A stretch of 57,005 nucleotides of DNA, taken from IMG/VR virus record IMGVR_UViG_3300000095_000003, positions 1-57,005 of that record; one strand, written 5' to 3'. The notes below the pieces were generated by a model. The model made no database searches. It was not told the DNA's origin and saw only the letters and a program-made list of their open reading frames with translations. The position numbers and the translations under genes were made by a program. This stretch comes from a virus. Lineage: Duplodnaviria; Caudoviricetes. The first letter of the stretch is position 1. Every line of letters begins with the position of its first letter. This document shows positions 13,662-30,155 of this stretch, in pieces.

Positions 13662-14801
13662 CTATTTCACATATCCTTTTGCAGATTTCAAAGCTTTATC
13701 AGAAAGCTCGATAACCTCATTTTGAAGATTATTTCTTTGTTCTGTTAATTGGTCAGGAACTCTAATATTAGAAACTTTCTCATTAATGTTGTCTAACTTT
13801 GCGGATAGATTTAATAGCATTGTACCTTTCTGAGAAGAAGGAATCTTTGAATTCCCATTATAATCAGTCATCTTTTGGGAAATTTCGTTCACTTCTTTTC
13901 TTGCTTTGTCTAACTGCGCGGTGGCTTCTCTAATGACTGTTACTCTCTCCAACTTAGCAGCTAAATCATCAAGAATACCATCAGTTCCAGAAATAAACTT
14001 AATAGCCCATAAATCGTCCTCATTAGCTTCTTTTCTTTCTTGAATAGTCGCTGAAGCTCTTAAAGAACTAAGACATACCATAGCTTGCCGTGGGCTAATC
14101 CATTGTCCCTTGCTATGAGCATCAGCAATCAGTCCAGCTAATACTTTTTTCAAATCATTAGAAATCGATATAGTTGAAGAGTTGTTATCCGCAGTTAAAA
14201 ATAAGTTATAGAAAGCCTCTTGATTATAAGAAGGCCATGCTACATTAATCTGCCAAGGAAATCTTTCAACTAAGGCTTGATAAGATGCTCCCATGTCTGC
14301 AATTTCCGCTGGATTACGGTTTGTTGCAGCTATTAACATTAAAGTCTTCATCTCATAAGATTGATGTCCATTATTTAAGCAACGAGATGTCAGAGTGTCT
14401 TTAAGAGCTAGTAGAACTGAGGGTGGAGCATCAAAAAGTTCCTCAAAAAGATAATTAGCGCAGTTTAAAAAGCAATTATCGGGTTGAAATTCTAACCGTG
14501 GATTTTCAGTACAGTTAAGAGCTTTCATGTTTATCCCGCCATACATCTTAGCTTCCGTCATACCTTCTCCGAAACTCTGGATACCAAAGTTCTGACCCTT
14601 AGATTGTTGTAGTGCCTTAAAGAGCGCTCTTACTATTTCACTTTTTCCGTGACCACCAGGGCCGTAAAATAAAAGATTAATAGGTTTTCCTGCTTCAATA
14701 GATGCTAAAGCTAGAGATAAAATTTCCTTTACTTCATCGGCATAAACAAAAGTCTTCAAAGCATCTGCAACTACTGGAAGGATACGATTAGAGTTAGTCA
14801 T
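13662..14801 (-). CDS. MoxR/RavA-type AAA+ ATPase
   Basis: NLLFYGPGGHGKS, LFEEL, IAATN, ALVERF, ISPRQ. Confidence 0.85.
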   Translation of the reverse strand: MTNSNRILPVVADALKTFVYADEVKEILSLALASIEAGKPINLLFYGPGGHGKSEIVRALFKALQQSKGQNFGIQSFGEGMTEAKMYGGINMKALNCTENPRLEFQPDNCFLNCANYLFEELFDAPPSVLLALKDTLTSRCLNNGHQSYEMKTLMLIAATNRNPAEIADMGASYQALVERFPWQINVAWPSYNQEAFYNLFLTADNNSSTISISNDLKKVLAGLIADAHSKGQWISPRQAMVCLSSLRASATIQERKEANEDDLWAIKFISGTDGILDDLAAKLERVTVIREATAQLDKARKEVNEISQKMTDYNGNSKIPSSQKGTMLLNLSAKLDNINEKVSNIRVPDQLTEQRNNLQNEVIELSDKALKSAKGYVK

Positions 14802-14837
14802 AATTATTTTTTTAGTTGGGTTAACTGCTGAACAAAC

Positions 14838-14916
14838 TACTTTACTTAAGATTTTTATGGATAACCTTAAAAATAAAGTAAAACCTCCACTAAAACAACC
14901 AATCTTAGTAGAGGTG
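14838..14916 (-). ncRNA. two-hairpin kissing-loop motif, copy A
   Basis: ACCUCUACUAAGA-UUGGUUG-UUUUAGUGGAGGU, short U linker, hairpin 2 with loop AUCCAUAAA. Confidence 0.75.
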
Positions 14917-14939
14917 AAAAGAAATTAACTGTCAGAGAA

Positions 14940-15290
14940 TTATCTAGGCTTTACTAATACCTTCCACCACTTAGGTGATTTTATTAATTCAATTGCAACG
15001 TTACTTACATTATTTGCATCTTCACAAGCCTTTTTCCAACAATCTTCATAAGATACAAAGACTCTATTTATTTCAGTATTAAAAGTTTCACTTGATACTG
15101 TAAAAGAGCTATGTTCTATTCCCTTCTTAGAAAGTTCTAAAAAACCTCTATCTTTTTCCCCTACTACAAACTGAGGTATTACAACAAAAGAATAATCACC
15201 TAAATCTATATCATCTGGAATTGCTTGACATAAAGCGTAATCTTTACGAAGAAACTCATTAATATTTACTGGAACGGTTGGAACTATCAT
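14940..15290 (-). CDS. hypothetical protein
   Basis: AAGGAGA RBS, co-oriented. Confidence 0.6.
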   Translation of the reverse strand: MIVPTVPVNINEFLRKDYALCQAIPDDIDLGDYSFVVIPQFVVGEKDRGFLELSKKGIEHSSFTVSSETFNTEINRVFVSYEDCWKKACEDANNVSNVAIELIKSPKWWKVLVKPR

Positions 15291-15346
15291 GATATTCTCC
15301 TTTAATTATGTATTTGAACTTAGTGAAGGTAATAACGTCCCTAGAA

Positions 15347-15634
15347 TTACAACAACTCTAAGGACTTGATATGAAGAGTTACCGCATTTACTACATTGTT
15401 TAAGCAGTAAGGAGTTATGCCCTTCTTTCTCATTCTATTATAGAGATTTGCTACCTTATTACCTGTCTCTAAATCTCCAATAGAAAGGTAAGAGATAACA
15501 TTTGAACTATCTATTTCTTCTTTTTGAGATATAACTTTTGCACTAATTCCATTTTCTCCACTAATTAAAACTACTGCATTTTCCGTATTAGTTTTAGGCA
15601 AAGATACTGTCCATTTCCAAGTTCTAGTCAACAT
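15347..15634 (-). CDS. hypothetical protein
   Basis: AGGAGG RBS. Confidence 0.6.
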   Translation of the reverse strand: MLTRTWKWTVSLPKTNTENAVVLISGENGISAKVISQKEEIDSSNVISYLSIGDLETGNKVANLYNRMRKKGITPYCLNNVVNAVTLHIKSLELL

Positions 15635-15650
15635 AATCTAACCTCCTAAG

Positions 15651-15689
15651 AAAATAAGAAAGGCTCAGAAAACTAAAACTTCTAAGCCT
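15651..15689 (-). terminator. intrinsic terminator
   Basis: AGGCTTAGAAG/TTTCTGAGCCT stem followed by TTCTTATTTT. Confidence 0.6.
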
Positions 15690-15700
15690 ATAAGAACTAT

Positions 15701-16441
15701 CTACTGAATATCAAACGTGTGATACAAATCTAACAATAATAGAAATCCTCTAGCTTCTTTTCTACCATCCAAATCAGAAATGGAAGATAAAGAACCTGAT
15801 TCTAGTAATTTCTGTATTTTCTTAACTAAATCACCACTAATAGCTGTCATCCCTCTTCCAAGAAACTCACTTGCTCTTACTATATCTTTGAATTTTTCGA
15901 TATCTCCAGACTTTAAATCTTTTTGGACTTGTTCTGGTATATTTTCCCATAGTTCTTGTTTTTCTGATAATTTAGAAAATGACTTAGTAATAATTTCAAC
16001 AGCTATAACTATTGTAGAGGGAGAACTATTAGTAGAAAGTTCTTTAGTAGGTGGAGTATAGTCTTCTTGAATTACTACTGTCAAATCTAAACTTTCTAGT
16101 CGGCTAACTATATCTTTTACTAGCTCCATCATTTTTTCCTTATTCTTACCAACTAATCTGTGACGAGAACCTTCTATATAAAACTTATTCTCATATCTAG
16201 GGTTTAGTCCTTCTTCGATAGTAATTTGGTCAGTATCAACTTTCCCAGTCAAAAGCTTAGACATTACTACCATCTTTGCTCCTAACTCCTCACTTGCATA
16301 ATGCACTGGTAGCTCGTATTCTTTCTCTAGTATAGACAGTAAATTTCTAACAACTCCATATTTAGAAGGACTGGTATTGATAATAAAACTTTCACTGTCA
16401 ATATGAGTAAACTGAACATCACTTCTTTCTAAAATAGCCAT
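15701..16441 (-). CDS. hypothetical protein (start moved to MAILE)
   Basis: upstream TTG extension is a low-complexity T-rich tract. Confidence 0.55.
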   Translation of the reverse strand: MAILERSDVQFTHIDSESFIINTSPSKYGVVRNLLSILEKEYELPVHYASEELGAKMVVMSKLLTGKVDTDQITIEEGLNPRYENKFYIEGSRHRLVGKNKEKMMELVKDIVSRLESLDLTVVIQEDYTPPTKELSTNSSPSTIVIAVEIITKSFSKLSEKQELWENIPEQVQKDLKSGDIEKFKDIVRASEFLGRGMTAISGDLVKKIQKLLESGSLSSISDLDGRKEARGFLLLLDLYHTFDIQ

Positions 16442-16526
16442 AGTTTTTAAATAATATAAAGTACAAATAAAGAAAAAAGAGAAGATAGTAAGAAATATAC
16501 TACCTTCTCTCATTAAACTCAAACTT

Positions 16527-16940
16527 TTACAGATGTAGATAAATTGAAGCTAAAAACATTGCTTGAGTAAATTCAACCTCTTCCTTCTGTCTAAGTGAGC
16601 CTAAATCTACATCTAGAAGAGAATTTAGATATCCAATGACAAATGGAATAAGAACATATTCACTAAACTTCTTACTAATCCAAGTCTTATTTGCTAACCT
16701 CTTCTTACTTGTTTCTTCAAAATCTTCCATTAATTCAGGAATTGAAGAGTATTCCTCTAAAGTTTTGCTCAACTGCTTCTTCTCTAAACGAACAAATAAT
16801 CCTTTCAGAATGCTACAGACTTTGGGATTGTTGAGCATTAGATCGAAAAACATTCTAGTCTTTTCTGACTTTGACTTCAGGTAAGAATGAATACCTTCTT
16901 GAGTTACAGGATACCAATATTGTTCGGTTTCATTAGTCAT
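16527..16940 (-). CDS. hypothetical protein
   Basis: AAGGAGA RBS. Confidence 0.6.
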   Translation of the reverse strand: MTNETEQYWYPVTQEGIHSYLKSKSEKTRMFFDLMLNNPKVCSILKGLFVRLEKKQLSKTLEEYSSIPELMEDFEETSKKRLANKTWISKKFSEYVLIPFVIGYLNSLLDVDLGSLRQKEEVEFTQAMFLASIYLHL

Positions 16941-17006
16941 TTGATTTTCTCCTTAATTTAGTGATGTCATATTTTTTAATTCTCAATCATTAAATAAAAG
17001 AGAATA

Positions 17007-17579
17007 TTACACTTTCCTCTTATAAGACACTAGATAATCGTGCATTCCAAACCATTGAGGAATATCTATAGAATGTATTTTTTCCCATTCTTCTTCTAGT
17101 AAATCAAAGAAATTACCATCTCCAGTACATCCTTCAGAACCTTCTCCCACAAAAATTACTTGATTACCTTTATAAGCTTTTAGACAATCATAAGCAAAAG
17201 AAGTATTATAAGGTGGCCAACAAAGAAATAAAGTATGGTTAGGATAATTAGCTAATATATCAACTGAATTAATCTTAGTGATTTCGTACTATTGATTTTT
17301 ACACCAATGATTATCATAAGGGGATTCATCAAAAGCTATAACTTCTCCACCTGAATCACTTATTAGTTTAGACCAATATCCTGTACCTGCTCCCATCTCA
17401 ATTATTGGAGATTGAGATACTAAATAATCAATAGCTTCTTGATTTGGTATTGCCCATGAATAATGCTTAGTTAATGCAAACCTTTCTTTAGACCCCACAC
17501 AATGATAGAGGTCATTATATTTTCCTTGCTCAAACTCTTCTAAATATGGATTAGCTATTTTAATTTCAGTACAAATCAT
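17007..17579 (-). pseudogene. class I SAM-dependent methyltransferase-like gene interrupted by one in-frame TAG (17289-17291)
   Basis: YSWAIP, IIEMGAGTGYW before the stop; same frame continues YEITK...LFLCWPPY...IFVGEGSEGCTGD...IPQWFGMHD to TAA at 17007. Confidence 0.75.
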
Positions 17580-17591
17580 AGTAATTTCTAT

Positions 17592-17656
17592 AAGCCATCA
17601 TCAGAGTAGACATTATCTACTGACATCCTAACTGAGAAGCTAAGATGTTTCGGCTT
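17592..17656 (-). ncRNA. type II hammerhead ribozyme
   Basis: AAGCC-GAAA-CAUCUUAGC(loop)GUUAGGAUG-UC^AGUAGA(UAAUG)UCUACU-CUGAUGA-U-GGCUU: full core, three stems, GUC cleavage triplet. Confidence 0.9.
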
Positions 17657-17659
17657 TTA

Positions 17660-18556
17660 CTAGATATGTATTATTGCCCAATCATCAGGTATGCGTTTAT
17701 CTTGATTGTAGTAATCTGGATGGACATAGAAACGTTCACCATCCTCTGAATTACAAGATATGTATCCTTCTTTTCGTACATAATTTTCTAATTCGTTTTT
17801 CTTACTAGCAATTTCTGTTTGAAACTTCTTGATTGTTGAAATTAACTTTTCCCTTTCTACATAATCTACTTGTTTCTTTAAGGTCTCAATAACTTTCTCT
17901 TTACTTGATGAAAAAAACGCTCGGCTACCACTAATAATTGATTTACCTTCAAATTGTCCATCCGATTGAGTGATTTCAAGTTCATAACCTTTATACTCAA
18001 TTTTCGTTGGTTTTGAATACTCATCTACTGCTTCTTGAAAATAGCTCACTACTAAAGTGTCTAGATAGTGATACCCTGATTCCTCAAAATTAATAGCTTC
18101 ACATTTACCATGCCAAAGAATTTCATTTGTTGTCTTCTCCTTCTCTTGCCAAGCTTCTAAAGTAAAATCATTGTAAACCACAGAAAAAGTCTTCATAGTG
18201 TTCTCCAAATGTTTGTCTACTTTATCAAGAAAGTTATCAACTAATTCATCAAAATACTCATCACCTTCAAACTCAATCTCTTTACAAGCACCTACATAAG
18301 TTCGTAGCCCGTGATATTTAAACTCTAACGTAAATCCTTTATAGATTAACTTTGATGGGTTACGTGGACATCTCAACTGTTTCTTAGCTAGATATTCACA
18401 GAATGGAAAAAGAATTGACTCAATACTAAGGTGATTCTCTACACTAAATCCCACTTTCACACATTTAGCAGAATAACGCTTAGCATATTTCCCTCCTCTA
18501 TCGTGTTCTTCTACTTCTAGATTGAAAGTATCCATAACCAATGTGAAATTTCTCAT
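17660..18556 (-). CDS. protein with four HicB-like N-terminal-domain repeats plus C-terminal P.WAII domain
   Basis: repeats such as YKGFTLEF...GAC...ELVDNFLDKVDKHL and YKGYELEI...KKQVDY. Confidence 0.6.
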   Translation of the reverse strand: MRNFTLVMDTFNLEVEEHDRGGKYAKRYSAKCVKVGFSVENHLSIESILFPFCEYLAKKQLRCPRNPSKLIYKGFTLEFKYHGLRTYVGACKEIEFEGDEYFDELVDNFLDKVDKHLENTMKTFSVVYNDFTLEAWQEKEKTTNEILWHGKCEAINFEESGYHYLDTLVVSYFQEAVDEYSKPTKIEYKGYELEITQSDGQFEGKSIISGSRAFFSSSKEKVIETLKKQVDYVEREKLISTIKKFQTEIASKKNELENYVRKEGYISCNSEDGERFYVHPDYYNQDKRIPDDWAIIHI

Positions 18557-18658
18557 GTTGTTCTCCTTAGCTAAAAGTTTTGCAACTGCAATAAGTAATG
18601 TTGATTAGATAAGTAGTTAGTAACCTCCTACTAATGAGAAAGATTCGACAAAACTTGA

Positions 18659-18847
18659 TTACTTCTTAGGTTTAGGTTTGTCAAAAATTATCCTTACGAT
18701 TGTTTCTGCAACTTCAGGTATTTGAGCAGAAATTCGATTGAGTTGTGCTGTAAAAGCTGGGTCATACTGTACTTGATTTTTTAATCGTTGACATTCTTCC
18801 TCCCATACTTCATCTGGAATATCGGGATTAACTCCACCTGCTGCCAT
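18659..18847 (-). CDS. small hypothetical protein
   Basis: AGGAGA RBS. Confidence 0.55.
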   Translation of the reverse strand: MAAGGVNPDIPDEVWEEECQRLKNQVQYDPAFTAQLNRISAQIPEVAETIVRIIFDKPKPKK

Positions 18848-18909
18848 TTGTTTTGTCTCCTAAATAAGTAAAGTTGAGTGAAATTGGGTTAGCCACTTCT
18901 CGCGTTGAG

Positions 18910-19284
18910 TTAAAAAATACGAACTACAGCCCAGTTAGGAAACTCAGAATTCTTATTCTTTTGAAATGCTTCTTCATACTCGGCACTAACTGCACATCGA
19001 TAACTGCCTTGATTACCTGGGATTGTATAGGTGTAAAAAGAATATCCTAGTCCTATTAAATACTCTTCTAGTAGATCTTGTTTTTCCCATACTTCTTGCT
19101 GATATTGAAGTATTTTTCCTAATGCTGTTCTCTTATCTACAAAATCTAGAAAGTTTGTGATTAGTGAACCAATATCTTCATATCTTGCGTAGTAACCAAG
19201 TTTTTCACATTCTCCCTTATAACTAGATTCCTTGAGAGTAATAATCAATTCGTAACCTTCATGAGAAAATTTAGATTGTGACAT
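18910..19284 (-). CDS. HicB-like repeat + P.WAII domain protein
   Basis: HEGYELII...YKGEC...LITNFLDFVD; FPNWAVV. Confidence 0.55.
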   Translation of the reverse strand: MSQSKFSHEGYELIITLKESSYKGECEKLGYYARYEDIGSLITNFLDFVDKRTALGKILQYQQEVWEKQDLLEEYLIGLGYSFYTYTIPGNQGSYRCAVSAEYEEAFQKNKNSEFPNWAVVRIF

Positions 19285-19317
19285 AATACTCTCCTTAATT
19301 AATGTGTACTCTTTTCC

Positions 19318-19545
19318 CTAGTAAGAAAACCAATCCGCCCCTAACCGTAATCCACCTATTCTTAGAACAATGTGGAGATTAAAAAAGAATCGGTTTACAC
19401 TATCTCGTCCAATACTAATCCAATTTTCAGTACCACTACCCCGCCAGTATAAACAAGTAGAAGATTGAGATTCAGATTCAAAACCCCACCGAAGTTGATT
19501 ATCTTCTATGCTAAATGAGCCATTAGGACTAATTTGAATTTTCAT
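19318..19545 (-). CDS. hypothetical protein
   Basis: co-oriented ORF. Confidence 0.5.
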   Translation of the reverse strand: MKIQISPNGSFSIEDNQLRWGFESESQSSTCLYWRGSGTENWISIGRDSVNRFFFNLHIVLRIGGLRLGADWFSY

Positions 19546-19964
19546 GACATAACTCTAAATTTTAAATTGTTTCTCAGCAAATTGCTATATTGTCCTCTCG
19601 TTAACTCTACTGCTACCCCAATGTGAAATGTCTTAGGATTCTGATTTATTACCTCAGATAATAAGCCCTTAATCGCATCGTCATTCTTTCCTGCTATGAC
19701 ATTTAGTTTCCCATTAATCTTCACAGTCCAGAACTTAAATTTGGTGTTTTCGTATTCTTCTTGATATTGAAGCCAGAGTTCTTTCTTTAATCCAAAGGCT
19801 TGTTCTAACTTCTCAGCTATAGAAGGGGTGACGGGTTCTTCCTTGATTAATACATTAGAGACTTCAAAAGGTAGCTCACAGATTAGTAGTTCTCGACTTT
19901 CTACTTCTTTGAGAATGTGGTCAGATGGTGATATACTCATTTTTCCTCCTAAGCTATAAGTCAT
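19542..19964 (-). CDS. HigA/VapI-like HTH antitoxin domain fused to unknown C-terminus
   Basis: SPSDHILKE...VSNVL....PVTPSIAEKLEQAFGLKKELWLQYQEEY. Confidence 0.7.
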   Translation of the reverse strand: MTYSLGGKMSISPSDHILKEVESRELLICELPFEVSNVLIKEEPVTPSIAEKLEQAFGLKKELWLQYQEEYENTKFKFWTVKINGKLNVIAGKNDDAIKGLLSEVINQNPKTFHIGVAVELTRGQYSNLLRNNLKFRVMS

Positions 19965-19996
19965 CTGAGTTAGTCACCTCCCCAGAACTAGACAAT

Positions 19997-20332
19997 CTAG
20001 GTGCTAAGAATGTCTATTGTTTCTACAGCATTCTCCCAAGCTTCTTCTTCTGTTTCACCATATCCAAAAATATAAGCTACTTCTTCCCATTCACCTTCTT
20101 TATTGATTACATTTTCGTACTCTTCCATCTGTTCCCCATCTGTCAGATAGATAATTCCTAAAGAACCATTATCAGCAATGTGTTTAATCTCAGGAAAATC
20201 TTTCTTGACTATTACAAAACTGCATTCCTTACCAATCGTGTCGTGTGACCAACCAAAATCTGCCCAATCTCCAGTAGTATGACCTGAGCGACATTCGTAA
20301 CCTTGGTCAATTAATTGAGATTTAGTGTCCAT
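19997..20332 (-). CDS. hypothetical acidic protein
   Basis: AGGAGA RBS. Confidence 0.6.
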   Translation of the reverse strand: MDTKSQLIDQGYECRSGHTTGDWADFGWSHDTIGKECSFVIVKKDFPEIKHIADNGSLGIIYLTDGEQMEEYENVINKEGEWEEVAYIFGYGETEEEAWENAVETIDILST

Positions 20333-20359
20333 GATATTCTCCTAAAGTTAAAGTGAAAT

Positions 20360-20405
20360 GTTCTACTTAGGACTTCAACCTAAGAGTGAGGCAAACTCAT
20401 AGAAC
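20360..20405 (-). ncRNA. three-way junction with T-loop arm (J1)
   Basis: GUUCUA-[UGAG UUUGC CUCA]-CU-[CUUAGG UUGAAGU CCUAAG]-UAGAAC. Confidence 0.55.
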
Positions 20406-20421
20406 TCCAGCAGACTAACTA

Positions 20422-20970
20422 CTATGAGAGATTACTATTCCACACTTCACTTATCTTTCCAAAAGAAAATAAAGGGTGTCCTCGTTCTTCTCTTATATAA
20501 AGTTGCCAATCTCCAAAAAATCCTAATAGAAGATCAAGACTCTCTATTTCTTTTTGTTTCATGAAATCTTTGATAAGTAAATCTTTTCTACCAAAATAAT
20601 CACCGCTTAAAGCTACCGCATCATCAAACTCAGGACTGATAAAAACTACTCTTAACTTCTTAGGTTGAATTACTGAATTAATTAACTCTTCAACAGTTGA
20701 GTAAATTTCTCCCCAGCTTTGATACTCAACATCTACATCATCTCTAATTTCCCAAATATTCTCTCCTCGTCTAGTAATTCCTAACTTAATCATTCTTCCT
20801 CTGAAATAATCAATATACAAACCATCTTCATCTAGTTCAATATCGTCCGTAGTTAGTGATATTCCTTTAAAATGTCTATCTTGATAAATACCCATTCCAA
20901 CTACTTTACTTGCTTTAATAGCGTTAAGAGTAATTTCTTTGACCTGTTGTTCTGTGGCTGTAAAGATCAT
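20422..20970 (-). CDS. hypothetical protein
   Basis: AGGAG RBS, 182 aa. Confidence 0.6.
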   Translation of the reverse strand: MIFTATEQQVKEITLNAIKASKVVGMGIYQDRHFKGISLTTDDIELDEDGLYIDYFRGRMIKLGITRRGENIWEIRDDVDVEYQSWGEIYSTVEELINSVIQPKKLRVVFISPEFDDAVALSGDYFGRKDLLIKDFMKQKEIESLDLLLGFFGDWQLYIREERGHPLFSFGKISEVWNSNLS

Positions 20971-20980
20971 ATTTTGACTC

Positions 20981-21202
20981 CTACTTAGATTCTTCTACTT
21001 GTGTACTTGAATATTGTGTGTTAGATACTCTTGCACCTCTAGCTGCTTCTCTAATATCTGATTCAGAAACATCATTAGAAACAAACACTTGACTATTTAT
21101 TGCAACTGAGTTTTCTAAATTGCTAGAGATTTTCTTAGCTATTTCATCTGTATCACAAAAAACTCTTAACTCAGATTTATTCGACATTTTCTTCATCCTC
21201 AA
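20981..21202 (-). CDS. hypothetical protein
   Basis: co-oriented ORF. Confidence 0.5.
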   Translation of the reverse strand: MRMKKMSNKSELRVFCDTDEIAKKISSNLENSVAINSQVFVSNDVSESDIREAARGARVSNTQYSSTQVEESK

Positions 21203-21653
21203 TAAAATATGGGTCTGTAAGTTCCGACCAGTTTATAACGGCATAATCAGGATATTTAGTATCTCTCCTTTTGTTGTAGTCTTTTTGATTTTCTCTCCAC
21301 TCATCTAAGACTTGAGAATAAACTGCGAATTCTGTTGGTACTCCTCTCCAGTTGTGACCCCACTCAAAAATATAACCTTCATTCTCTAGAAAATCTTTTA
21401 GAAGTGAGTAGAGAGACTCTAATGATTTTTTATTGTCTTTTATTTGAAGAATTTGATTCTCAATCTTAACTGAGATGGGTAATTTCGATTCTACTTCTTG
21501 CTCTAATTGTTTCTTTGCATCTAACTGAGTTTCAAGCCAATGTTTCCACTCCTCTACTAACTTGAAATCTCCTAGTCTCTCAATAACTCTAATATGTTCT
21601 CTTGTTCCTTCAATAGATTTGTTAAGCTTTGATAATCGTTCTTGAAAATCCAT
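21177..21653 (-). CDS. coiled-coil + P.WAII-family domain protein
   Basis: LKDFLENEGYIF...FAVY...YPDYAVI. Confidence 0.55.
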   Translation of the reverse strand: MDFQERLSKLNKSIEGTREHIRVIERLGDFKLVEEWKHWLETQLDAKKQLEQEVESKLPISVKIENQILQIKDNKKSLESLYSLLKDFLENEGYIFEWGHNWRGVPTEFAVYSQVLDEWRENQKDYNKRRDTKYPDYAVINWSELTDPYFIEDEENVE

Positions 21654-21665
21654 AGCTCTCTCTCC

Positions 21666-22076
21666 TTAAGACTCCGCTAAACGTTTGTACACTTCTTCTC
21701 TTTCTTTTTCTGAATCTAGATAACATTGATAGGCTGAATAGTCTTCTTTCCCTCTCCAATTAAAAGACCAATTTACAGGTAATTCCTCATAACTAAGGTT
21801 CAATAATTTTCTAATAGAGGTAGCACGATAATATTCGCAATCAACTTTAATATATAGACCATTATCTTCAAAATAATAATCTAACTCTTTTTCATAAGCT
21901 GCTCTATCAAAATGCTTAAAAACTTCTGCTGGATAATACGTTTTACCAAACATTTTTATAGGTAAAGCAAAATAACTATTTAAATGTCTATCAAACATTC
22001 CCTCCATATCTACTCTACTTATGGGTTTTAATCTTCTTTTTATTTCTATGCACTGAGATTGAGTGAGATTTAACAT
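21666..22076 (-). CDS. hypothetical protein
   Basis: co-oriented ORF. Confidence 0.6.
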   Translation of the reverse strand: MLNLTQSQCIEIKRRLKPISRVDMEGMFDRHLNSYFALPIKMFGKTYYPAEVFKHFDRAAYEKELDYYFEDNGLYIKVDCEYYRATSIRKLLNLSYEELPVNWSFNWRGKEDYSAYQCYLDSEKEREEVYKRLAES

Positions 22077-22085
22077 TTTTATCCC

Positions 22086-22127
22086 AAAAAAAATAAAAAA
22101 CTCCCCAGACCTAGGATCTAGAGAGTT
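22086..22127 (-). terminator. intrinsic terminator
   Basis: AACTCTCTAGAT/GTCTGGGGAGTT stem followed by long T run. Confidence 0.75.
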
Positions 22128-22151
22128 GATTAACTACTAAAAAGTGAAAAA

Positions 22152-22439
22152 TTAAGATTTGCTAGGTATTAAGTTTACTAATCTTAGAAAGAATCGATTA
22201 GCAAAGCCAGTAATATCTAACTGAAGTGTCTCTTCTAACTCTAAAGTACAATGAATAGCCTCATCAATCTGCTGCATAATACTCTCTAAATGTCCTTTGC
22301 TATCTAAAAGAACTAAAATCTCTAGTAACTCAGGATTATCTAGAGTTTCTCTTAATCTAGAAAATGTATCGTCAATGTTTTGATACCTTGAAAATTCATC
22401 AGCTAACAATTCGTAAGATTTTCGACGGATAATATACAT
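22152..22439 (-). CDS. hypothetical protein
   Basis: GGAGA RBS. Confidence 0.55.
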   Translation of the reverse strand: MYIIRRKSYELLADEFSRYQNIDDTFSRLRETLDNPELLEILVLLDSKGHLESIMQQIDEAIHCTLELEETLQLDITGFANRFFLRLVNLIPSKS

Positions 22440-22534
22440 GGTAATTCTCCAAAAAACTAAATTTACTCAAAAAACACACACAAAAAGCTAAAATCTTGTG
22501 CTTAACCTTGATTTTTTAGTCAAAATTTAGACAC

Positions 22535-22571
22535 AAAAAGCGCCCCTATCCCGGTTAAAGGATAAGAGCGC
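22535..22571 (-). terminator. intrinsic terminator
   Basis: GCGCTCTTATCC/GGATAGGGGCGC stem followed by TTTTT. Confidence 0.8.
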
Positions 22572-22614
22572 GACCGACTAGGAGGAAAAACAAGAGAAAT
22601 TGAGAACTAATTGT

Positions 22615-23400
22615 CTACTTCTTCTGTATTTCAGTGATTTCTGCGGGTTCTTCCGGGTTTTCGGATGGAGTTATGTCAACTACTACATTGGATTCCTGAT
22701 TTTCTACTTCTATTTCAGTATTTTGAGTCTCAAGAGTCTCATTTTCATCCTCTTTCGGGACAGGTAGAGTAAGATATTGTGGTGCATCTTCATAGAGACG
22801 CTTCATGTGTGGAGTCTCGCCGACAACTTGACCAATAAGAATCTTAAACACTGCTGCCACAGAATCCTTATCAACCATTAAATCGATGTTCTCTGCTAAT
22901 TCTCCCACTTTTTCCGCTGTTTTCGTTCTCACGTTTAGATAAGCAATGAACAAGAGAAGAAGTTTAACTAATTTTGGAGGATATACCATCTCCCGTGAGA
23001 GTTGATTGAGATACTTAGCGAAAGGTGTGCTATTAATCCAACCCTCAAAGAAAGTATAGAGCGAAGTAGACACGATGGGGATATTATTCGGGTTTGTCGG
23101 CTTGGCAACTAAATCGGAATCCTCAGTATAAGCAGGTGAAGGATTCCAGAGCATTATCTTAGCCGAGGTAAGTGAGAATTTAGCTACTTGACTGGTATTA
23201 TCCCATAACGTTAAATGTTCCCCTTCCGCATCATCATGCCAGCGGATAGAGATTTCGCGTTCTGCTGAACCCCGAATCGCAGTGTAAGTCTTCTCTCCCT
23301 TCTTGTTCTCTTTCTCAGTAGCCGGATTGTACTTGTAAGAGATTTTTTCGGTGCTTCTGTAGGCAAAAGTTGTATGACCGATTGCAGATAAATCTAACAT
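22615..23400 (-). CDS. hypothetical protein with acidic tail
   Basis: 261 aa ORF, AAGGA RBS. Confidence 0.65.
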   Translation of the reverse strand: MLDLSAIGHTTFAYRSTEKISYKYNPATEKENKKGEKTYTAIRGSAEREISIRWHDDAEGEHLTLWDNTSQVAKFSLTSAKIMLWNPSPAYTEDSDLVAKPTNPNNIPIVSTSLYTFFEGWINSTPFAKYLNQLSREMVYPPKLVKLLLLFIAYLNVRTKTAEKVGELAENIDLMVDKDSVAAVFKILIGQVVGETPHMKRLYEDAPQYLTLPVPKEDENETLETQNTEIEVENQESNVVVDITPSENPEEPAEITEIQKK

Positions 23401-23551
23401 TGTTTGATCCTTTGTGAGTGTTTGCGGTTTTCCTACTTAGGTGTAGGTTTGAGAGCCTAAATCACTTAATAGTTAGGTAGGATTTTATTCCCGTTATTAA
23501 GTTATTAGGGATGACTGAGACAACTTACCAGGTATATCCCAGCCGAGAAAA

Positions 23552-26500
23552 CTAAACTAAATCATTAGCTAAGCTCTTGATAGTGTCTAGCTCGTCATGT
23601 AAAGAAGTTAGATGCTTCTTGATGTCTCTATCTTTGCTATACTCTCTTAACCAATGGTAGAGCATTGAGTATAAGCTACCTTTCTCTGGGCTAACTCTAT
23701 CTCCAATTTCTTTCTGAAGTAGAGATTCAATCCCCGAAATCACTGTTTTACCTTTATCAGTTGGATGAGGTAGCCTAATATTATCTCGGATTACTGAGAT
23801 TAACTGAATCTTAATCCGATGTTCCCATCTTTCTATATCATTGGTGTAAATAGTCCAAGGTGTGAGGATGACACCATTAGAACATCGAAAACCAATAGAT
23901 AAACCAGAGAGTTGATAGAAAGTATCAATTAAGTCACCCCAGACAAGTGAGTCTAGCTGTGGGTTTCTATCCAATAGATTGTGAACATTTAACATCAATT
24001 TAGCAGGATTCTTTTTCCCTACTGACTGACCGCCGAGTATAACCTCTAAATCATCTTTCTGAGTCCACTTTTTCCAATTAGCGGTTATCTTCTCTAGTAA
24101 ATGAGTGCTGTCATGCTCAGAGTAAGGTTTTAAAGTTGTGAGGTCTATTACCTTCCCTAGATTGACTGCACTCTCAGAAGTGAAAGGGCGAATAAACTTG
24201 AGGAAGGTTTTCTTAATGGCAGAGTAACCATGACCCGTATCTATAAACCCTGCAACTTGAGTAACCTTTGTAGGAGTAGTGATTTTACCTTCACCTACTA
24301 AAGCAGATCTATTAGCAGTGATATATTTGTTAATCACTTTTCTAAGTTGAGATTCAGAAAAGTTAACTAACTCCATCTCATCTAAAGAACATCTTAAGAG
24401 AGCGCGAAACACCTCTTTGTTGTTGTGTTCGTTAAAAGCAGTTGTAATTGCTAATCGAGTCGGTACAATGCCGTAGTTTCTATCGTGCTTCTCTATCTCT
24501 CCTTTCTCATTCTTTTTCGAGTATCGTTGCTCTGTATTTGCAGGGTCTATAATATCTAAGTGATGCTCAGATACTACTTGACCTTTATGCTCTATTTCAA
24601 TGTAGATTCCTTTCCGTCTCTTGTCATAATAAACAGAAAGCTTACACCCAAAGTAATTGAAAGTTGACTCTAGATAATTTCTGATCTCACGGATATCTGG
24701 CTTTTTAATTCCAAAATACTCTCTGAGATTGTACGTTACCCGCCTAATCCAATTTAAAACACTCGGAAGATTGTGTCGAATCAATGCAGCGTCATTTGTG
24801 GATTGATTAGTCAGCTTATAAGTGTATTTCTGATCCTCCACTTCTTCCACCACTGACACCTTCGCTAACTCATAAAATCCGTAGTAAGGATTAGTAGAGC
24901 TAGTTAAAAATTGAGCTTGCTTAAGTCTTTCTTTGAGTTTATTCTTAGACTCTAGAAAGTTTTTAGGGTCAATCTTCTTCTCTGTTACTAATCCATCAAG
25001 TAGATTAGTCAACATTGAGATTAAAGACGTTCTAGGAATCCCGCCGTAAAATTCAGATGAGATGTTCTTGAGTCTCTGGATTTCTTTATGCAGATAAGAG
25101 ATACCAGATAATCGAGGGACGTTTCCTGCTATGTATCTTGCTAAGTGATAGCAGTAAGAGTCAGGTAGTTTAACAGGTAGAGCAGTTAGAGTGTACCCCG
25201 TAATTGATGGATTCAGCTTTAGAAGACATGGGACAGTACCAATCACATCATAGAACGTAGCAGAACCCGATACAACTTTCTCATTCTCTAACTTGATTGG
25301 CTTAGGAGTCTTTCTCTCAGTCTTTTCTACTCTCTTAACTTTCTTAGTAGTGTCAGGAGGGGGAGGAAGTACACGATTGAACGTTACGGCAGGATGGTAG
25401 AATGAGGACTCAATTCTCTCTGGTACTTCTGTAGCTTCATCATAAGGATGTTTAACCCCAAACTTGTCTACAAAATAAGAGCGCATCTTGGTTCTATAAA
25501 TGTGACGCTCAGGTGGGTCTTTAGGGTTCTCACATTCTAGAGTTTCGAGCTTTACTTGATTAATGGATTGACTCGGAAATATCTTTACTCCATCTACCTC
25601 AATTAAGGGACAAATCTCGTGTAAATCTTGCTCGTGAGTCTGTAGATCATTGTAATAGAGTAATTGACCGCCATCAAACAAAGCTATCCGTCGAGATTTC
25701 TGTTGATAAAAGTTGGTGTCAGTCTTCTCAATGTACTCTTGTACTAGATATGTTTGTCCGTCTATCTCTTCTTTGATTGGAGTTATAAGCCAGATATTAT
25801 CTAACTCCGGGATGGATACTCTCTTATTACGTTGGATGCTTCCCTTACCCCTTGGTCTGATCTCTGCTACTCCTTCAGATGCTTGACCTTTCTGCCTTAA
25901 CTGCTTTGAGACTTTTTTGACTTCTATTGTCTGATTGTGGTAGCTCTCCTTATTGACGATAGAGTTTTTGATTTTCTCTAACTTGCGGAATTCAGTAGGG
26001 TCTAGAGTAGCCTTGAGTTTATCGAAGAGAATGTCATCAATTCTAGAACACTTAAGCTCATCACACAGTGCTTTAGTTTCTCTCAATAGATAAGTATCAA
26101 GAGTTATATTTTCTGTAGTTTCTACATCTTGAACATACCAGACAATTGGAGGATTCAAGTAGAGCGTCAAAGCGTTATGTGGAGTGTTATCTAGTGCTAC
26201 TTTAAACTCTCTCAACTGTTCCGTTACAAACAGCCATCCAGTGAGTAAAGGAGTGATTTTAGACAGAGATACATCAAGACGTTTTTTGATTTGTCTACCT
26301 TCAGAATTTGGTAATGAGATGTATACTCCCATCGGCTCAGGAATGACAAGAGGTTCAGTGTCTTCTGCTACTGGTACAATCTCAAAAGTAGTTTTAGTTA
26401 CTTCTGAGATGTAAGCAGTGTCCAATTCACCTTCCTCTACAACTACTGATGACGATTCAATAATCTCTGGGATTTCTGAAGATTCGTTGATTTCTTTTGG

Positions 26501-26947
26501 AGATTCGGAGATTGATTCAACTTGCTCCAAGATTTCAGGCTCTAGAGTATTATCTTCTGCTACTTCGATGGTTTTTGTAGTATTCTCTAGAGGTTCTGCG
26601 GGTTCTGTTTTTTCCTCTATAGCTAGAGGCGATAATACCATTACTCCATATACCCAATTGTTAGATACAGAAGTAAAATGCAGAACAGAGTCTAAACTCA
26701 CAGAGAAGTTCTTAGCGTCGGGAAATCTATTGCAGATATTCTTTTGTATTGGATGAAGATAACCGATGATTTCGGGTTCTTCTCCACTAACTTTTACTGT
26801 GACTTCCTTATCCTCAGCTTGAATTGATGTAGTGAATTTGATGTAATGAACAGTTTGAGAAAATGCAGAAAGATTGAGACAAGAGACTAAATACTCAGCA
26901 CAAAGTTTCTTAGTCTTCACTAAGTTATTAGGTAACATGACGAACAC
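23552..26947 (-). CDS. large hypothetical protein (1131 aa)
   Basis: long uninterrupted ORF; no motif recognised. Confidence 0.7.
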   Translation of the reverse strand: MFVMLPNNLVKTKKLCAEYLVSCLNLSAFSQTVHYIKFTTSIQAEDKEVTVKVSGEEPEIIGYLHPIQKNICNRFPDAKNFSVSLDSVLHFTSVSNNWVYGVMVLSPLAIEEKTEPAEPLENTTKTIEVAEDNTLEPEILEQVESISESPKEINESSEIPEIIESSSVVVEEGELDTAYISEVTKTTFEIVPVAEDTEPLVIPEPMGVYISLPNSEGRQIKKRLDVSLSKITPLLTGWLFVTEQLREFKVALDNTPHNALTLYLNPPIVWYVQDVETTENITLDTYLLRETKALCDELKCSRIDDILFDKLKATLDPTEFRKLEKIKNSIVNKESYHNQTIEVKKVSKQLRQKGQASEGVAEIRPRGKGSIQRNKRVSIPELDNIWLITPIKEEIDGQTYLVQEYIEKTDTNFYQQKSRRIALFDGGQLLYYNDLQTHEQDLHEICPLIEVDGVKIFPSQSINQVKLETLECENPKDPPERHIYRTKMRSYFVDKFGVKHPYDEATEVPERIESSFYHPAVTFNRVLPPPPDTTKKVKRVEKTERKTPKPIKLENEKVVSGSATFYDVIGTVPCLLKLNPSITGYTLTALPVKLPDSYCYHLARYIAGNVPRLSGISYLHKEIQRLKNISSEFYGGIPRTSLISMLTNLLDGLVTEKKIDPKNFLESKNKLKERLKQAQFLTSSTNPYYGFYELAKVSVVEEVEDQKYTYKLTNQSTNDAALIRHNLPSVLNWIRRVTYNLREYFGIKKPDIREIRNYLESTFNYFGCKLSVYYDKRRKGIYIEIEHKGQVVSEHHLDIIDPANTEQRYSKKNEKGEIEKHDRNYGIVPTRLAITTAFNEHNNKEVFRALLRCSLDEMELVNFSESQLRKVINKYITANRSALVGEGKITTPTKVTQVAGFIDTGHGYSAIKKTFLKFIRPFTSESAVNLGKVIDLTTLKPYSEHDSTHLLEKITANWKKWTQKDDLEVILGGQSVGKKNPAKLMLNVHNLLDRNPQLDSLVWGDLIDTFYQLSGLSIGFRCSNGVILTPWTIYTNDIERWEHRIKIQLISVIRDNIRLPHPTDKGKTVISGIESLLQKEIGDRVSPEKGSLYSMLYHWLREYSKDRDIKKHLTSLHDELDTIKSLANDLV

Positions 26948-26964
26948 TCCTAGTTATTTAATGA

Positions 26965-27027
26965 ACAATGACTAACTAAGGCATTGCACCTTAGTAGCAG
27001 GCTTTATGAATTCACCTATTAGTTGTT
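26965..27027 (-). ncRNA. three-way junction with T-loop arm (J2)
   Basis: ACUAA-[UAGGU...GCCUG]-CUA-[CUAAGG UGCAAUG CCUUAG]-UUAGU. Confidence 0.5.
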
Positions 27028-27718
27028 AAGGCAGTAGAATCATTCGAGAATTTTTAACATCCCAGTAGTGGTCAATTAAAGTTTTAGAGTCGTGATTTTT
27101 AGCATAGTCACACTCATAATTACAGTAATCAGGTGTAAATTGTGGCTCTACTAATCCGGCGTCATACTCAACGAATCGAAAGTTGAAAGCATTAGGTAAC
27201 TCCTCTATTATGGTCTGCAAGTCCTTAAATGCAATTCGACAGACTACTTCGCTATCTCTGTGATATTTTCCCGTCTCCTTGATTACTCGGCGCATAAAAT
27301 TGTGTAATTGTACTTTATGCCCGTATTCATCCCACTTACATAGATTATTAGGGTCTATTAGATACCTAAAACCTACTCTCTTAATGGATGGAGTAGAGAA
27401 CCATATAAATGCTTTGTTCTTTTTGAATTCGTCAGTATACTCTCCAATTTGTCCCTGTATTTGCTTCCCAAACTCAATGATAGACCGCATATACTCACTA
27501 GCTTGTTCAGCACTCTTAAACTTAGTTAACTCTAGTTTTCTATGAGTCGTTTTAGGTTGAGCTAATAATACTTTCTTCGCTTGTTCGTAACACTCTGGAT
27601 TTTTTAACATCTCAATAGCTTTGTGTACTGAGCTTTTACCACCTAATACCACATCGTAAGACTTAAGTTGTTGAGATTGTCCGCCGAGAACTGCATCATA
27701 TTGTGTAGGTTGTAACAT
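27026..27718 (-). CDS. hypothetical protein with duplicated YD[AV]VLGG N-terminal motif (start moved to MLQP)
   Basis: QPTQYDAVLGGQSQQLKSYDVVLGG; track TTG start lies inside RNA motif copy B. Confidence 0.6.
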   Translation of the reverse strand: MLQPTQYDAVLGGQSQQLKSYDVVLGGKSSVHKAIEMLKNPECYEQAKKVLLAQPKTTHRKLELTKFKSAEQASEYMRSIIEFGKQIQGQIGEYTDEFKKNKAFIWFSTPSIKRVGFRYLIDPNNLCKWDEYGHKVQLHNFMRRVIKETGKYHRDSEVVCRIAFKDLQTIIEELPNAFNFRFVEYDAGLVEPQFTPDYCNYECDYAKNHDSKTLIDHYWDVKNSRMILLP

Positions 27719-27751
27719 TTGATTTCTCTGTGATTTAGTTAGTGGATAAGC

Positions 27752-27815
27752 GATACTCAATTTTATGGATGTCGAGTATCAAAGCCCTTACATAGCAACC
27801 AACTACATAAGAGCG
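27752..27815 (-). ncRNA. two-hairpin kissing-loop motif, copy B
   Basis: GCUCUUAUGUAG-UUGGUUG-CUAUGUAAGGGC-UUU-GAUACUCGA C AUCCAUAAA A UUGAGUAUC. Confidence 0.75.
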
Positions 27816-27826
27816 AGTAGATTAGT

Positions 27827-28075
27827 TTACTTTGATGTAGCTAACTTCTGTAACCAGGCTTCTTTAATTTGATTTTCTAGTCTCTCAAACTTATCAGCAG
27901 TAAGGTAGAGTTCTCCACTATGAGATTTAGTTAGAGAGTAGTTGACAGCCCCTAAATCAATAGCTAACTGATCTACCATGTCGAGATTAATACAATCTGG
28001 TAAATAGACGGCATAACGATTGTCAAAAGTTTTAGGATTATATACCATCTCAGAACGGATTTTTAGGTTATTCAT
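27827..28075 (-). CDS. hypothetical protein (start moved to MNNLK)
   Basis: AAGGAGAG RBS before ATG 28075. Confidence 0.6.
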   Translation of the reverse strand: MNNLKIRSEMVYNPKTFDNRYAVYLPDCINLDMVDQLAIDLGAVNYSLTKSHSGELYLTADKFERLENQIKEAWLQKLATSK

Positions 28076-28101
28076 GATTCTCTCTCCTTTGTGTGTACAT
28101 C

Positions 28102-28163
28102 TACCCAATTTTATCGGTATAGGGTATAAAGACCTCTGTACAGCAACGAACTATACAGAAGTG
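28102..28163 (-). ncRNA. two-hairpin kissing-loop motif, copy C (covariant loops)
   Basis: ACUUCUGUAUAG-UUCGUUG-CUGUACAGAGGU, hairpin 2 UACCC..ACCGAUAAA..GGGUA. Confidence 0.75.
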
Positions 28164-28169
28164 ATGAGA

Positions 28170-28397
28170 TTAGATTTCAGATATTGCTACTTTTGACCAT
28201 CTATGGATTTTAACCACTCGACAATCAGAGGGAATTTCAATCCCGTACTTTTTCCAGTGATTAGGTGATGTTCTTAAGTCAGCATCTCCCATCCATTCTG
28301 ATGAGGTAAAATCTCCTTCAACAGTCATTAAAAAATTATCCGCATTCCTAATCACTGCATAACAATCTTGCTCGTTATCTTTGTAAATTTCTTGCAT
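28170..28397 (-). CDS. hypothetical protein
   Basis: AGAGGA RBS. Confidence 0.6.
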   Translation of the reverse strand: MQEIYKDNEQDCYAVIRNADNFLMTVEGDFTSSEWMGDADLRTSPNHWKKYGIEIPSDCRVVKIHRWSKVAISEI

Positions 28398-28424
28398 GAG
28401 TTTTTCCTCTTGTGTACGTTAACA

Positions 28425-28487
28425 GATACCTAGCTTTAGGATGTAAGGTATCAATACCTCTAGAAGATAACCACAAATCTAGAGGTG
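28425..28487 (-). ncRNA. two-hairpin kissing-loop motif, copy D
   Basis: ACCUCUAGAUUU-GUGGUUA-UCUUCUAGAGGU, hairpin 2 GAUACCU..AUCCUAAA..AGGUAUC. Confidence 0.7.
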
Positions 28488-28498
28488 GAAAAAGTGTA

Positions 28499-28786
28499 TT
28501 AAGTAAAACGAATCGTATCCCCACCAGAGAAATAATAGATTATAGTGCCGTTGTACTTCTTTTTTCTTTCTAAAATCTGACCGATGTATTGTAAATAAGT
28601 TAGCTCTAAAGCTTGACCTACATTACTAGATGGGAATACTTCTTTATGCTCTAATCCACCTTTCATAAATACAAAAGCGAAATAGTACGGAGTAGGGAAA
28701 TCAGATAACATTCCAGGTACATCTGCACTTGCACCAAATTCAAAACGGACTAGCTTGGCATTTACACAATTTTGATTAGTTTCCAT
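28499..28786 (-). CDS. hypothetical protein
   Basis: co-oriented ORF. Confidence 0.55.
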   Translation of the reverse strand: METNQNCVNAKLVRFEFGASADVPGMLSDFPTPYYFAFVFMKGGLEHKEVFPSSNVGQALELTYLQYIGQILERKKKYNGTIIYYFSGGDTIRFT

Positions 28787-28801
28787 TTATTTTGTTAGCC
28801 C

Positions 28802-29089
28802 TTAATGAGTAAGTTTTGAAAGACTCTGATAAATCCCCAGAGACCATAATCTGTTGAATCTTTCTGAGATTTTCTTAGCTTGTGCTTCATCATCCGCTAG
28901 GTATCTCATCTTCTCACCATTACCTGCCGGAGCAAAATACCAACTCCTACTATCCTCTGTCATCTCACCACCTTGACAATTAGTGATTATACTCGCTACA
29001 TAATGACTAGGGCAATGTCTTTGATAATGCTGTTCATTCCAATATACATCCTTTACAATGACTGCAAATTCAGAACTTTGACTGCTCAT
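28802..29089 (-). CDS. hypothetical protein
   Basis: AAGGAG RBS. Confidence 0.6.
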   Translation of the reverse strand: MSSQSSEFAVIVKDVYWNEQHYQRHCPSHYVASIITNCQGGEMTEDSRSWYFAPAGNGEKMRYLADDEAQAKKISERFNRLWSLGIYQSLSKLTH

Positions 29090-29110
29090 TTTTAACTCCT
29101 TTTAATGTAC

Positions 29111-29189
29111 ACTACTTTACAACTACTCTTTAGGATAAGTAGCCTAAGTAGTAAAACCCTCTACCAGCTAACCAAACTAATAGAGGGTG
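29111..29189 (-). ncRNA. two-hairpin kissing-loop motif, copy E
   Basis: ACCCUCUAUUAGU-UUGGUUA-GCUGGUAGAGGGU, hairpin 2 GGCUACUU-AUCCUAAA-GAGUAGUU. Confidence 0.75.
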
Positions 29190-29213
29190 AAAATATGAGA
29201 GAGTAAGTAAAAG

Positions 29214-29414
29214 CTACTCTAGCATCATATTAATGATTCGGGATTTTAACTTAGCTAACTCTTCAAAGTAATTAGCATTATTAATCTTGTCACGTAGCTT
29301 GTCTAAATCTTCCTCAGTAACTTCTTTGCGCGGACTTAATGGATATTGCGGTGAAGGTATCGGTTGTTTAGTAGTCCAAGGTGTGGGTTTTCCGGGGTCA
29401 TTAATTTCTGCCAT
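29214..29414 (-). CDS. small hypothetical protein
   Basis: AGGAG RBS. Confidence 0.55.
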   Translation of the reverse strand: MAEINDPGKPTPWTTKQPIPSPQYPLSPRKEVTEEDLDKLRDKINNANYFEELAKLKSRIINMMLE

Positions 29415-29473
29415 TGTTCTTGCTCCTAGTTTGTGTTGTTAGATGCTTTTAGTAACTCCGGGCTGAGAATTGA

Positions 29474-30103: not shown

Positions 30104-30155
30104 GGAAACCTCTAAAAATCTAAGTGTGTGAATTACCTGATAAGAACTACCAGGA

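Follow-up and report, generated by a model that had tools for sequence, protein, structure and literature searches.

Introduction

In T4-type phages, the promoter-early stem-loop (PeSL) is a mobile regulatory cassette, and its defining trait is a near-consensus sigma-70 promoter after the stem-loop (PMC4122927). In plastid operons, a 3' stabilising stem-loop is followed by a stem-loop processing element (IEE) and a Shine-Dalgarno sequence (SD), which leads to stable monocistronic mRNAs; the IEE was experimentally shown to act through a bound protein or an endonuclease (PMC2230500). In giant phages, small genes of obscure function stand in long arrays, and how these genes are individually expressed and exchanged is little understood. 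Here we describe a two-hairpin RNA element that occurs in five copies, named A to E, in the IMG/VR virus record IMGVR_UViG_3300000095_000003. The whole record, 57,005 bases long with 31.7% G+C, was analysed and is called the window (G000). Comparison with related contigs showed this element to be, at the level of sequence, a clade-specific cis-acting structured RNA that belongs to the mRNA strand and occupies the spacers separating same-strand genes.

Results

Five copies of a two-hairpin element in the window

All five copies lie on the minus strand, each in the gap between two genes of that strand. The order of parts is constant: hairpin 1 (H1), a three-base NUU linker, and hairpin 2 (H2), whose loop 2 holds the core A-N-C-S-(W)-U-A-A-A, giving an element of about 63-78 nt. 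H1 consists of 12-14 pairs (9 in copy D), and its loop 1 reads UUGGUUG, UUCGUUG or UUGGUUA, or GUGGUUA within the larger loop of copy D. H2 is either of a short type with 5-7 pairs and a 14-15-nt loop (B, C and D) or of a long type in which an outer and an inner stem carry a 9-nt loop (A and E). The copies are listed below with the scores of two covariance models, R1, trained on B, C and D only, and R2, trained on seven copies.

14839-14915, minus strand: copy A, long type, 5' of the MoxR-like ATPase gene 13662-14801; R2 28 bits, E 9.4e-5
14883-14915, minus strand: H1 of copy A (13 bp), with loop 1 at 14896-14902 (UUGGUUG) and linker at 14880-14882
14839-14879, minus strand: H2 of copy A (outer and inner stem), with loop 2 at 14854-14862 (AUCCAUAAA)
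27752-27814, minus strand: copy B, short type, 5' of the orphan open reading frame (ORFan) 27026-27718; R1 86.5 bits (training sequence)
27784-27814, minus strand: H1 of copy B (12 bp), with loop 1 at 27796-27802 (UUGGUUG) and linker at 27781-27783
27752-27780, minus strand: H2 of copy B (7 bp), with loop 2 at 27759-27773
28100-28162, minus strand: copy C, short type with CG/CG loops, 5' of gene 27827-28075
28132-28162, minus strand: H1 of copy C (12 bp), with loop 1 at 28144-28150 (UUCGUUG) and linker at 28129-28131
28100-28128, minus strand: H2 of copy C (5 standard pairs), with loop 2 at 28107-28121 (containing ACCGAUAAA)
28425-28486, minus strand: copy D, short type with enlarged loop 1, 5' of ORFan 28170-28397
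28456-28486, minus strand: H1 of copy D (9 bp), with loop 1 at 28465-28477 (13 nt, containing GUGGUUA) and linker at 28453-28455
28425-28452, minus strand: H2 of copy D (7 bp), with loop 2 at 28432-28445 (containing AUCCUAAAG)
29111-29188, minus strand: copy E, long type, 5' of ORFan 28802-29089; R2 42.7 bits, E 2.7e-8
29156-29188, minus strand: H1 of copy E (13 bp), with loop 1 at 29169-29175 (UUGGUUA) and linker at 29153-29155
29111-29152, minus strand: H2 of copy E (outer and inner stem), with loop 2 at 29128-29136 (AUCCUAAAG)

An earlier reading of these letters without database searches (the sequence-only reading) had placed five minus-strand copies, and all five were found there, with 3' ends within 0-2 nt. 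The 12-13-position stem and 7-nt loop that it described fit A, B, C and E, but not D with its 9 bp and 13-nt loop, and its U-rich NUU linker, loop-2 core AYCS(A)UAAA and frequent G-U pairs were all correct in the copies. The CACCUC that it had called anti-SD-like does open H1 in A and D; because CUCU...AGRG stems are shared with plain terminator hairpins, however, it seems to reflect how the stems are composed and not to be a signal.

The model R1 recovered E (30.7 bits, E 2.5e-5) and A (24.5 bits, E 7.1e-4), and its next-best match in the window reached 17.2 bits (E 0.038). Since a model built on B, C and D finds A and E well above the next match, the five-copy family is not a chance grouping. 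Moreover, the loop-1 pattern TKSGTTR occurs 20 times per strand in the window; the four sites with long stems (12, 12, 13 and 13 uninterrupted pairs) are A, B, C and E, and the rest have at most 6 pairs.

Homologous copies in related contigs

Aligning the MoxR protein with its close homologues, among them P0003, P0005 and P0006 (66-76% identity), led to three related records, namely G001 (a virus record of 151 kb, MoxR 68% identical), G002 (a virus record of 81 kb, MoxR 46% identical) and L131 (a metagenome contig, MoxR 81% identical). The covariance models identified seven further copies in them, giving a total of 12 confident copies in four contigs.

G001, 22736-22804: copy G1a
G001, 11416-11496: copy
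G002, 47789-47857: copy G2a
G002, 48334-48402: copy
G002, 65473-65555: copy
L131, 5480-5549: copy
L131, 9881-9961: copy

Two cassette-specific patterns were present in G001 and G002 only. Related loci were not found through single-protein searches, and the GenBank phage collection held no relative by DNA or by a 1131-aa protein encoded in the neighbourhood. The search of 836 kb around distant MoxR homologues, together with the related records, gave matches of E<0.01 in G001 and L131 only, and about 1.5 Mb of unrelated DNA yielded nothing convincing. No R2 match was obtained in five cyanobacterial assemblies that carry homologues of the 1131-aa protein, with scores computed for 150 of the roughly 700 candidates in each genome, and no convincing copy was identified in the records G003-G005. 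Because the 12 confident copies sit in four contigs and none that convinces was found in more distant relatives, the motif is restricted to a narrow clade.

Several candidates were examined and dismissed. The motif pattern picked out more than 116 viral stretches; among the 80 loci (691 kb) that were scored, no model match was better than E 0.18, and they were regarded as chance matches. The weak matches in G004 and G005 (E 0.002-0.5) included a plain H1-like hairpin with an SD immediately after it, and another whose "H2" was a hairpin containing the SD. A possible sixth copy in the window at 40989-41053 on the plus strand (17 bits, E 0.03-0.04) turned out to be a single long palindromic fold between converging genes, and the homologous genes in G001 and G002 have no such structure 3' of them. 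This junction (40979-41087, after the plus-strand gene 39173-40978) carries a long, two-way-terminator-like palindrome with a folding energy of -36 kcal/mol over 133 nt.

Both stems covary and fold on the mRNA strand

In the seven short-type copies, 96.2% of the cells are standard pairs, compared with 31-50% when the partners are slid by 1-3 columns. Both sides of the pair have changed in 14 of the 19 pairs (9 of 12 in H1 and 5 of 7 in H2), and the observed covariation score was reached in none of 500 shuffles. This seven-copy alignment was fitted to the model and is thereby biased toward the structure. When the four orthologous copies that precede the MoxR gene were folded independently with RNAalifold, the two hairpins were obtained again, with 28 pairs, a single broken cell and compensatory changes in 5 of the 28 pairs. 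The H2 stem was swapped by compensation from GAUACCU/AGGUAUC to UCUCCCC/GGGGAGA, or the reverse, with pairing kept. The best conserved parts of the element are the loops, and the stems vary freely. As judged from these alignments, the secondary structure is under selection.

G-U pairs make up 14 of 83 cells in H1 and 1 of 47 in H2 of the seven short-type copies. Read on the other strand, each of them would become an A-C mismatch, indicating that the folded strand is the mRNA strand.

The two conserved loops are complementary

Positions 2-6 of loop 1 (U-S-G-U-U) are antiparallel-complementary to the first five letters of the loop-2 core (A-N-C-S-W), and three to five of these five positions pair in every one of the 12 copies. 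The S:S pair is complementary throughout (9 G:C and 3 C:G), so that the concordance noticed earlier in five of five copies, with loop 1 GG and loop 2 CC in four and CG/CG in copy C, now stands at 12 of 12. When loop 1 of one type was combined with loop 2 of the other, the mean number of pairs dropped from 3.8 to 2.8. Counted as a pseudoknot over the seven short copies, the covarying pair is GC in four and CG in three, the next pair is GC in all seven, one flank is UA in all seven, and the other flank is UA in four, with one mismatch and two gaps. In the four orthologous copies before the MoxR gene, the letter at the middle position of the contact is U, U, G and A, of which G and A could pair with the U of loop 1. 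A short loop-loop helix between H1 and H2 would fit these observations, with thin support.

The copies are tied to downstream genes and border ORFan cassettes

All 12 copies lie between same-strand genes, with a stop codon shortly before them and a start codon 18-40 nt after them. In all five copies of the window, the distance from the upstream stop to H1 is 6-25 nt, and 19-37 nt, including the SD, separate the end of the element from the next start codon; H2 does not overlap the SD. An A-type copy precedes the MoxR gene in all four contigs, and copies C, G2a and G1a precede homologous small genes with differing upstream neighbours. In this arrangement the element is tied to the downstream gene.

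For five genes flanked by B-E (27026, 28170, 28499, 28802 and 29214), G001, G002 and L131 contain no homologue, although the region around them is syntenic. Furthermore, a copy in G001 is identical to copy E over 35 nt of H1 and linker, and its H2 and 5' untranslated region (UTR) match copy D in exact blocks of 11 and 34 nt; it is a chimera of the H1 of E and the H2 and UTR of D. Since the flanked ORFans differ between relatives and one copy is chimeric, the copies border exchangeable ORFan cassettes and recombine with each other. Tandem gene duplication was rejected as the source of the repeats, the flanking proteins being unrelated (best E 0.04).

Other spacers of the same phage carry plain terminators, formed by a hairpin and a U-tract, with CUCU...AGRG stems like those of H1. 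In a terminator scan that required a hairpin followed by at least 5 U in 8 nt, copy A alone of the five was identified (stem 14915-14883). Because the tails after H1 in B-E hold 3-4 U and then run into H2, H1 is at best a leaky terminator. Another hairpin of this kind, at 15303-15369 on the minus strand, lies over the stop codon of gene 15347-15634; it is H1-like with a U/G-rich loop and has no H2, indicating that single H1-type hairpins are also used alone. The loop differs in its G001 orthologue (L212 1922-1979).

The element belongs to no Rfam family

A search of the entire window against Rfam 15, which covers hammerhead, twister, pistol, hatchet, RAGATH motifs and mini-ykkC, gave no match at the gathering score and none at E<=1. 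When the threshold was relaxed to E<=10 in 27600-29300, four matches appeared, all far below the gathering score and none on an element. The hammerhead that the sequence-only reading had supposed in a similar position thus has no counterpart in the window, even at E<=1. Its view of a structured and unnamed RNA on the minus (mRNA) strand was borne out by the same check, as no existing family matched and both stems covary in the collected homologues. A full-text literature search, which did not extend to the supplementary models of PMC10690425, found no description of the motif; that source catalogues 8,495 candidates for structured RNA in IMG/VR 3.0, and the motif might already carry a number there. 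We conclude that it is a real, so far unnamed RNA motif and a member of no Rfam family.

ARAGORN at default settings called no tRNA gene in the window. With relaxed settings on 29400-32900, a region that holds none of the five elements, it called tRNA-like elements in other spacers.

The phage and its other spacers

CheckV estimated that the record represents about 19% of one genome, so the 57,005-base window is a fragment of a very large phage. The minus strand carries nearly all of its genes. Among the 94 open reading frames (ORFs), in which 34 Pfam families were matched, the majority have no Pfam family; the genes that can be named encode a MoxR-like AAA ATPase and its VWA partner, an RNA ligase, NUDIX, ClpP, a GIY-YIG nuclease and a GNAT-DUF6610 protein. 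Neither a phage RNA polymerase nor a sigma domain was detected in the three fragments G000-G002. The pair of MoxR-like AAA ATPase and VWA-domain protein (12230-14801, minus strand) is kept in all four related contigs, and beyond these contigs the closest named MoxR homologues (34-40% identity) belong for the most part to candidate-phyla-radiation bacteria. The 1131-aa protein has homologues (29-45% identity; loci L234-L240) on contigs of assemblies titled Microcoleus or filamentous cyanobacterium, and these assembly titles are the basis for the hint of a cyanobacterial host of the phage lineage.

Upstream of copy E, four minus-strand spacers (30104-30218, 30564-30693, 31114-31235 and 31470-31553) each contain a T-arm-like hairpin in a tRNA-like fold, with the loop UUCGAUU, UUCAAUU or UUCAACU. 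A second hairpin and an SD follow, in the same slot and with the same two-part layout as in the motif. ARAGORN called none of the four by default, and with the option -ps it called 30156-30225 on the minus strand as tRNA-Ile-like. In the upstream spacers of G000-G002, GTTCGAT was the most enriched 7-mer (8 regions, 10.6-fold). The four folds may be remnants of tRNA genes or processing signals that resemble a tRNA.

A stretch of 1,048 nt without an ORF (31758-32805), which includes a C/T-rich segment, separates two divergent genes where the long minus-strand gene array begins. It had no Rfam match and no terminator-like site, and its sigma-70-like sites were not above those of shuffled sequence; it could be a large non-coding RNA, an origin or a set of unusual promoters. 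Moreover, TATAAT and TGNTATAAT sites were found 8-30 nt before starts at divergent junctions, upstream of 39173 (plus strand) and between 51289-51564 (minus strand) and 51607 (plus strand). The orthologous G001 spacers also carry TATAAT and TGNTATAAT sites, which are probably the ordinary promoters of this phage.

Discussion

We tentatively propose, with a probability of roughly 0.35, that the element acts as an intercistronic RNA punctuation cassette which defines and protects mRNA ends. The two hairpins would dock side by side through a short loop-loop helix to form a compact fold. For the upstream message, H1 would be a leaky terminator and would block 3'-to-5' exonucleases; an endonuclease would cut either in the NUU linker, which is single-stranded, or in the large loop of H2, and H2 would cap and protect the new 5' end of the downstream message, which has its own SD. 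Being repeated, the cassette could also serve as a recombination site that shuffles ORFan genes between relatives.

Several observations weigh against this proposal. The middle position of the loop-loop contact pairs in none of the seven short-type copies, and the helix would comprise two G-C pairs and one or two U-A pairs. The compensatory swap pointed out by the sequence-only reading holds in so far as all 12 copies are concordant, but the three C:G copies may go back to one inherited event or to replacement of a whole cassette. At one orthologous junction, G000 and G002 are of the C:G type and G001 is of the G:C type; the G001 copy there is a whole-cassette chimera, not a pair of point changes. 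In the short type, H1 (12 bp) is far longer than H2 (7 bp), and the 14-15-nt loop would have to bridge the difference for docking to occur. Moreover, end protection by itself does not require conserved loops, which could equally be a protein-binding site, and the cyanobacterial host, hence the RNase set, is a lead that rests on record titles only.

Such a binding site is central to the alternative that we take most seriously, although we consider it unlikely: a phage or host RNA-binding protein reads the conserved loops and co-regulates the cassette genes by repressing or activating translation or by antitermination at H1. It would account for loops that are best conserved next to stems that are free to vary, for the tie to the downstream gene, whose start codon lies 19-37 nt past the element, and for the presence of the element before several unrelated genes, as expected of a regulon signal. 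However, the variable loop position changes complementarily in 12 of 12 copies, which is predicted by base pairing and not by protein recognition; the SD is not overlapped by H2; and no RNA-binding family occurs among the 25 Pfam families listed of the 34 matched (94 ORFs, most of them unmatched). Somewhat less likely again, the loop-loop contact might build a compact RNA fold of a new class that works without protein, either as a two-way exoribonuclease barrier, a counterpart in bacteria and phages of viral exoribonuclease-resistant RNAs (xrRNAs), or as a self-processing site; in both cases it would split the long early transcripts of a giant phage into individually stable messages and move with the ORFans as a portable unit of expression.

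The repeats might instead operate as DNA, in a PeSL-like cassette in which H1 ends the upstream transcript and the H2 region is the promoter of the next gene. A repeated cassette in a variable region, adjoining ORFans that differ between relatives, and signs of recombination all agree with the PeSL (PMC4122927), and the linker with the 5' arm of H2 reads TTGATA or TTTACT, similar to a -35 box. Nevertheless, we find this doubtful: a promoter scan of 13500-32000 gave a sigma-70-like site in none of the five elements, the expected -10 position reads TRRGKA or TAAAGM without the final T, and the promoter-like TGNTATAAT and TATAAT sites of these phages sit in other spacers. In addition, the compensatory changes in H2 (GAUACCU/AGGUAUC versus UCUCCCC/GGGGAGA) destroy the "-35" and keep the pairing, the conserved loop 1 is left unexplained, and the lack of a phage RNA polymerase or sigma domain in the G000-G002 fragments also speaks against it. 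That the element is a stable small RNA, cut from the polycistronic transcript and acting in trans as a decoy or guide, seems improbable. A compact fold with possible loop docking would suit it, as would the tRNA-like elements, each then followed by a hairpin in the same slot, in four spacers just upstream (30.1-31.6 kb); on the other side, it has no known target or partner, the stem sequences differ widely between copies, and the link to the downstream gene favours action in cis. We give slightly less weight to a single-stranded DNA recombination site of the attC or REP kind, where a recombinase would read the hairpins and move the ORFan cassettes. The structure is kept while the sequence varies, the fold is strand-specific, and the elements lie between promoterless-looking ORFan cassettes with one chimeric copy among them. 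The conserved letters of attC, however, are at the stem base and those of the element in the loops, the copy at the MoxR gene is stably kept in four of four contigs, and no integrase or transposase was among the 25 Pfam families listed of the 34 matched in the 94 ORFs of this record of about 19% of the genome. Least probable of all, and very much so, is a new class of self-cleaving ribozyme. Its small size, its conserved unpaired nucleotides, a possible tertiary contact, its place in phage intergenic spacers and the lack of a matching known family would suit this, but the element lacks the multi-helix junction or internal-loop core of known small ribozymes, its conserved letters are confined to the two hairpin loops and the 3-nt linker, and Rfam 15 detected no ribozyme nearby in the whole window.

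With 12 copies in four contigs, two covarying stems and two natural loop alleles (G:C and C:G), the motif offers a clean case for study, and the comparison of relatives gives evidence of its travelling and recombining together with ORFan genes. Should the fold turn out to define mRNA ends or to resist nucleases, it would represent RNA-only punctuation of phage operons and provide a compact part for synthetic operons. If it is a terminator variant only, it would still document regulatory cassettes that drive gene shuffling outside the T4 group.

Compared with intrinsic terminators, H1 is likewise a stable hairpin directly after a gene, with U residues following and CUCU...AGRG stems. Unlike them, the motif has a U tract that passes the terminator scan in one of five copies, a conserved loop, and an obligatory H2 that begins 3 nt past the stem. 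The guanidine-II riboswitch (mini-ykkC) consists of two hairpins with ACGR tetraloops that pair through C-G. The motif shares the two small hairpins upstream of an SD and, as proposed here, a C-G loop-loop contact, whereas its loops are UUSGUUR (7 nt) and 9-15 nt long rather than ACGR, it has no Rfam match, and it precedes unrelated ORFans instead of transporter or detoxification genes. The put antiterminator RNAs of phage HK022 are about 70 nt long, form two adjacent hairpins, act in cis on the transcript by rendering RNA polymerase resistant to terminators, and occur twice per genome just downstream of early promoters. Size, the two adjacent hairpins and phage origin are alike in the motif, but it is present in five copies in 57 kb, four of them within 1.5 kb, each before its own gene.

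The order of a stabilising hairpin, a second stem-loop, an SD and the next cistron is shared with the plastid IEE (PMC2230500). The two have no sequence relation; processing was shown experimentally for the plastid element, and for the motif it is inferred and a loop-loop contact is proposed. In genomic behaviour, the motif comes closest to the PeSL (PMC4122927): both are short repeated intergenic cassettes that open with a terminator-like stem-loop, lie in a variable region where the neighbouring ORFans differ between related phages, and recombine among their copies. No sigma-70 promoter was found in the five motif copies, which thus differ from the PeSL in its defining feature. What the motif adds is a covarying second hairpin and two complementary conserved loops, which point to a function at the RNA level.

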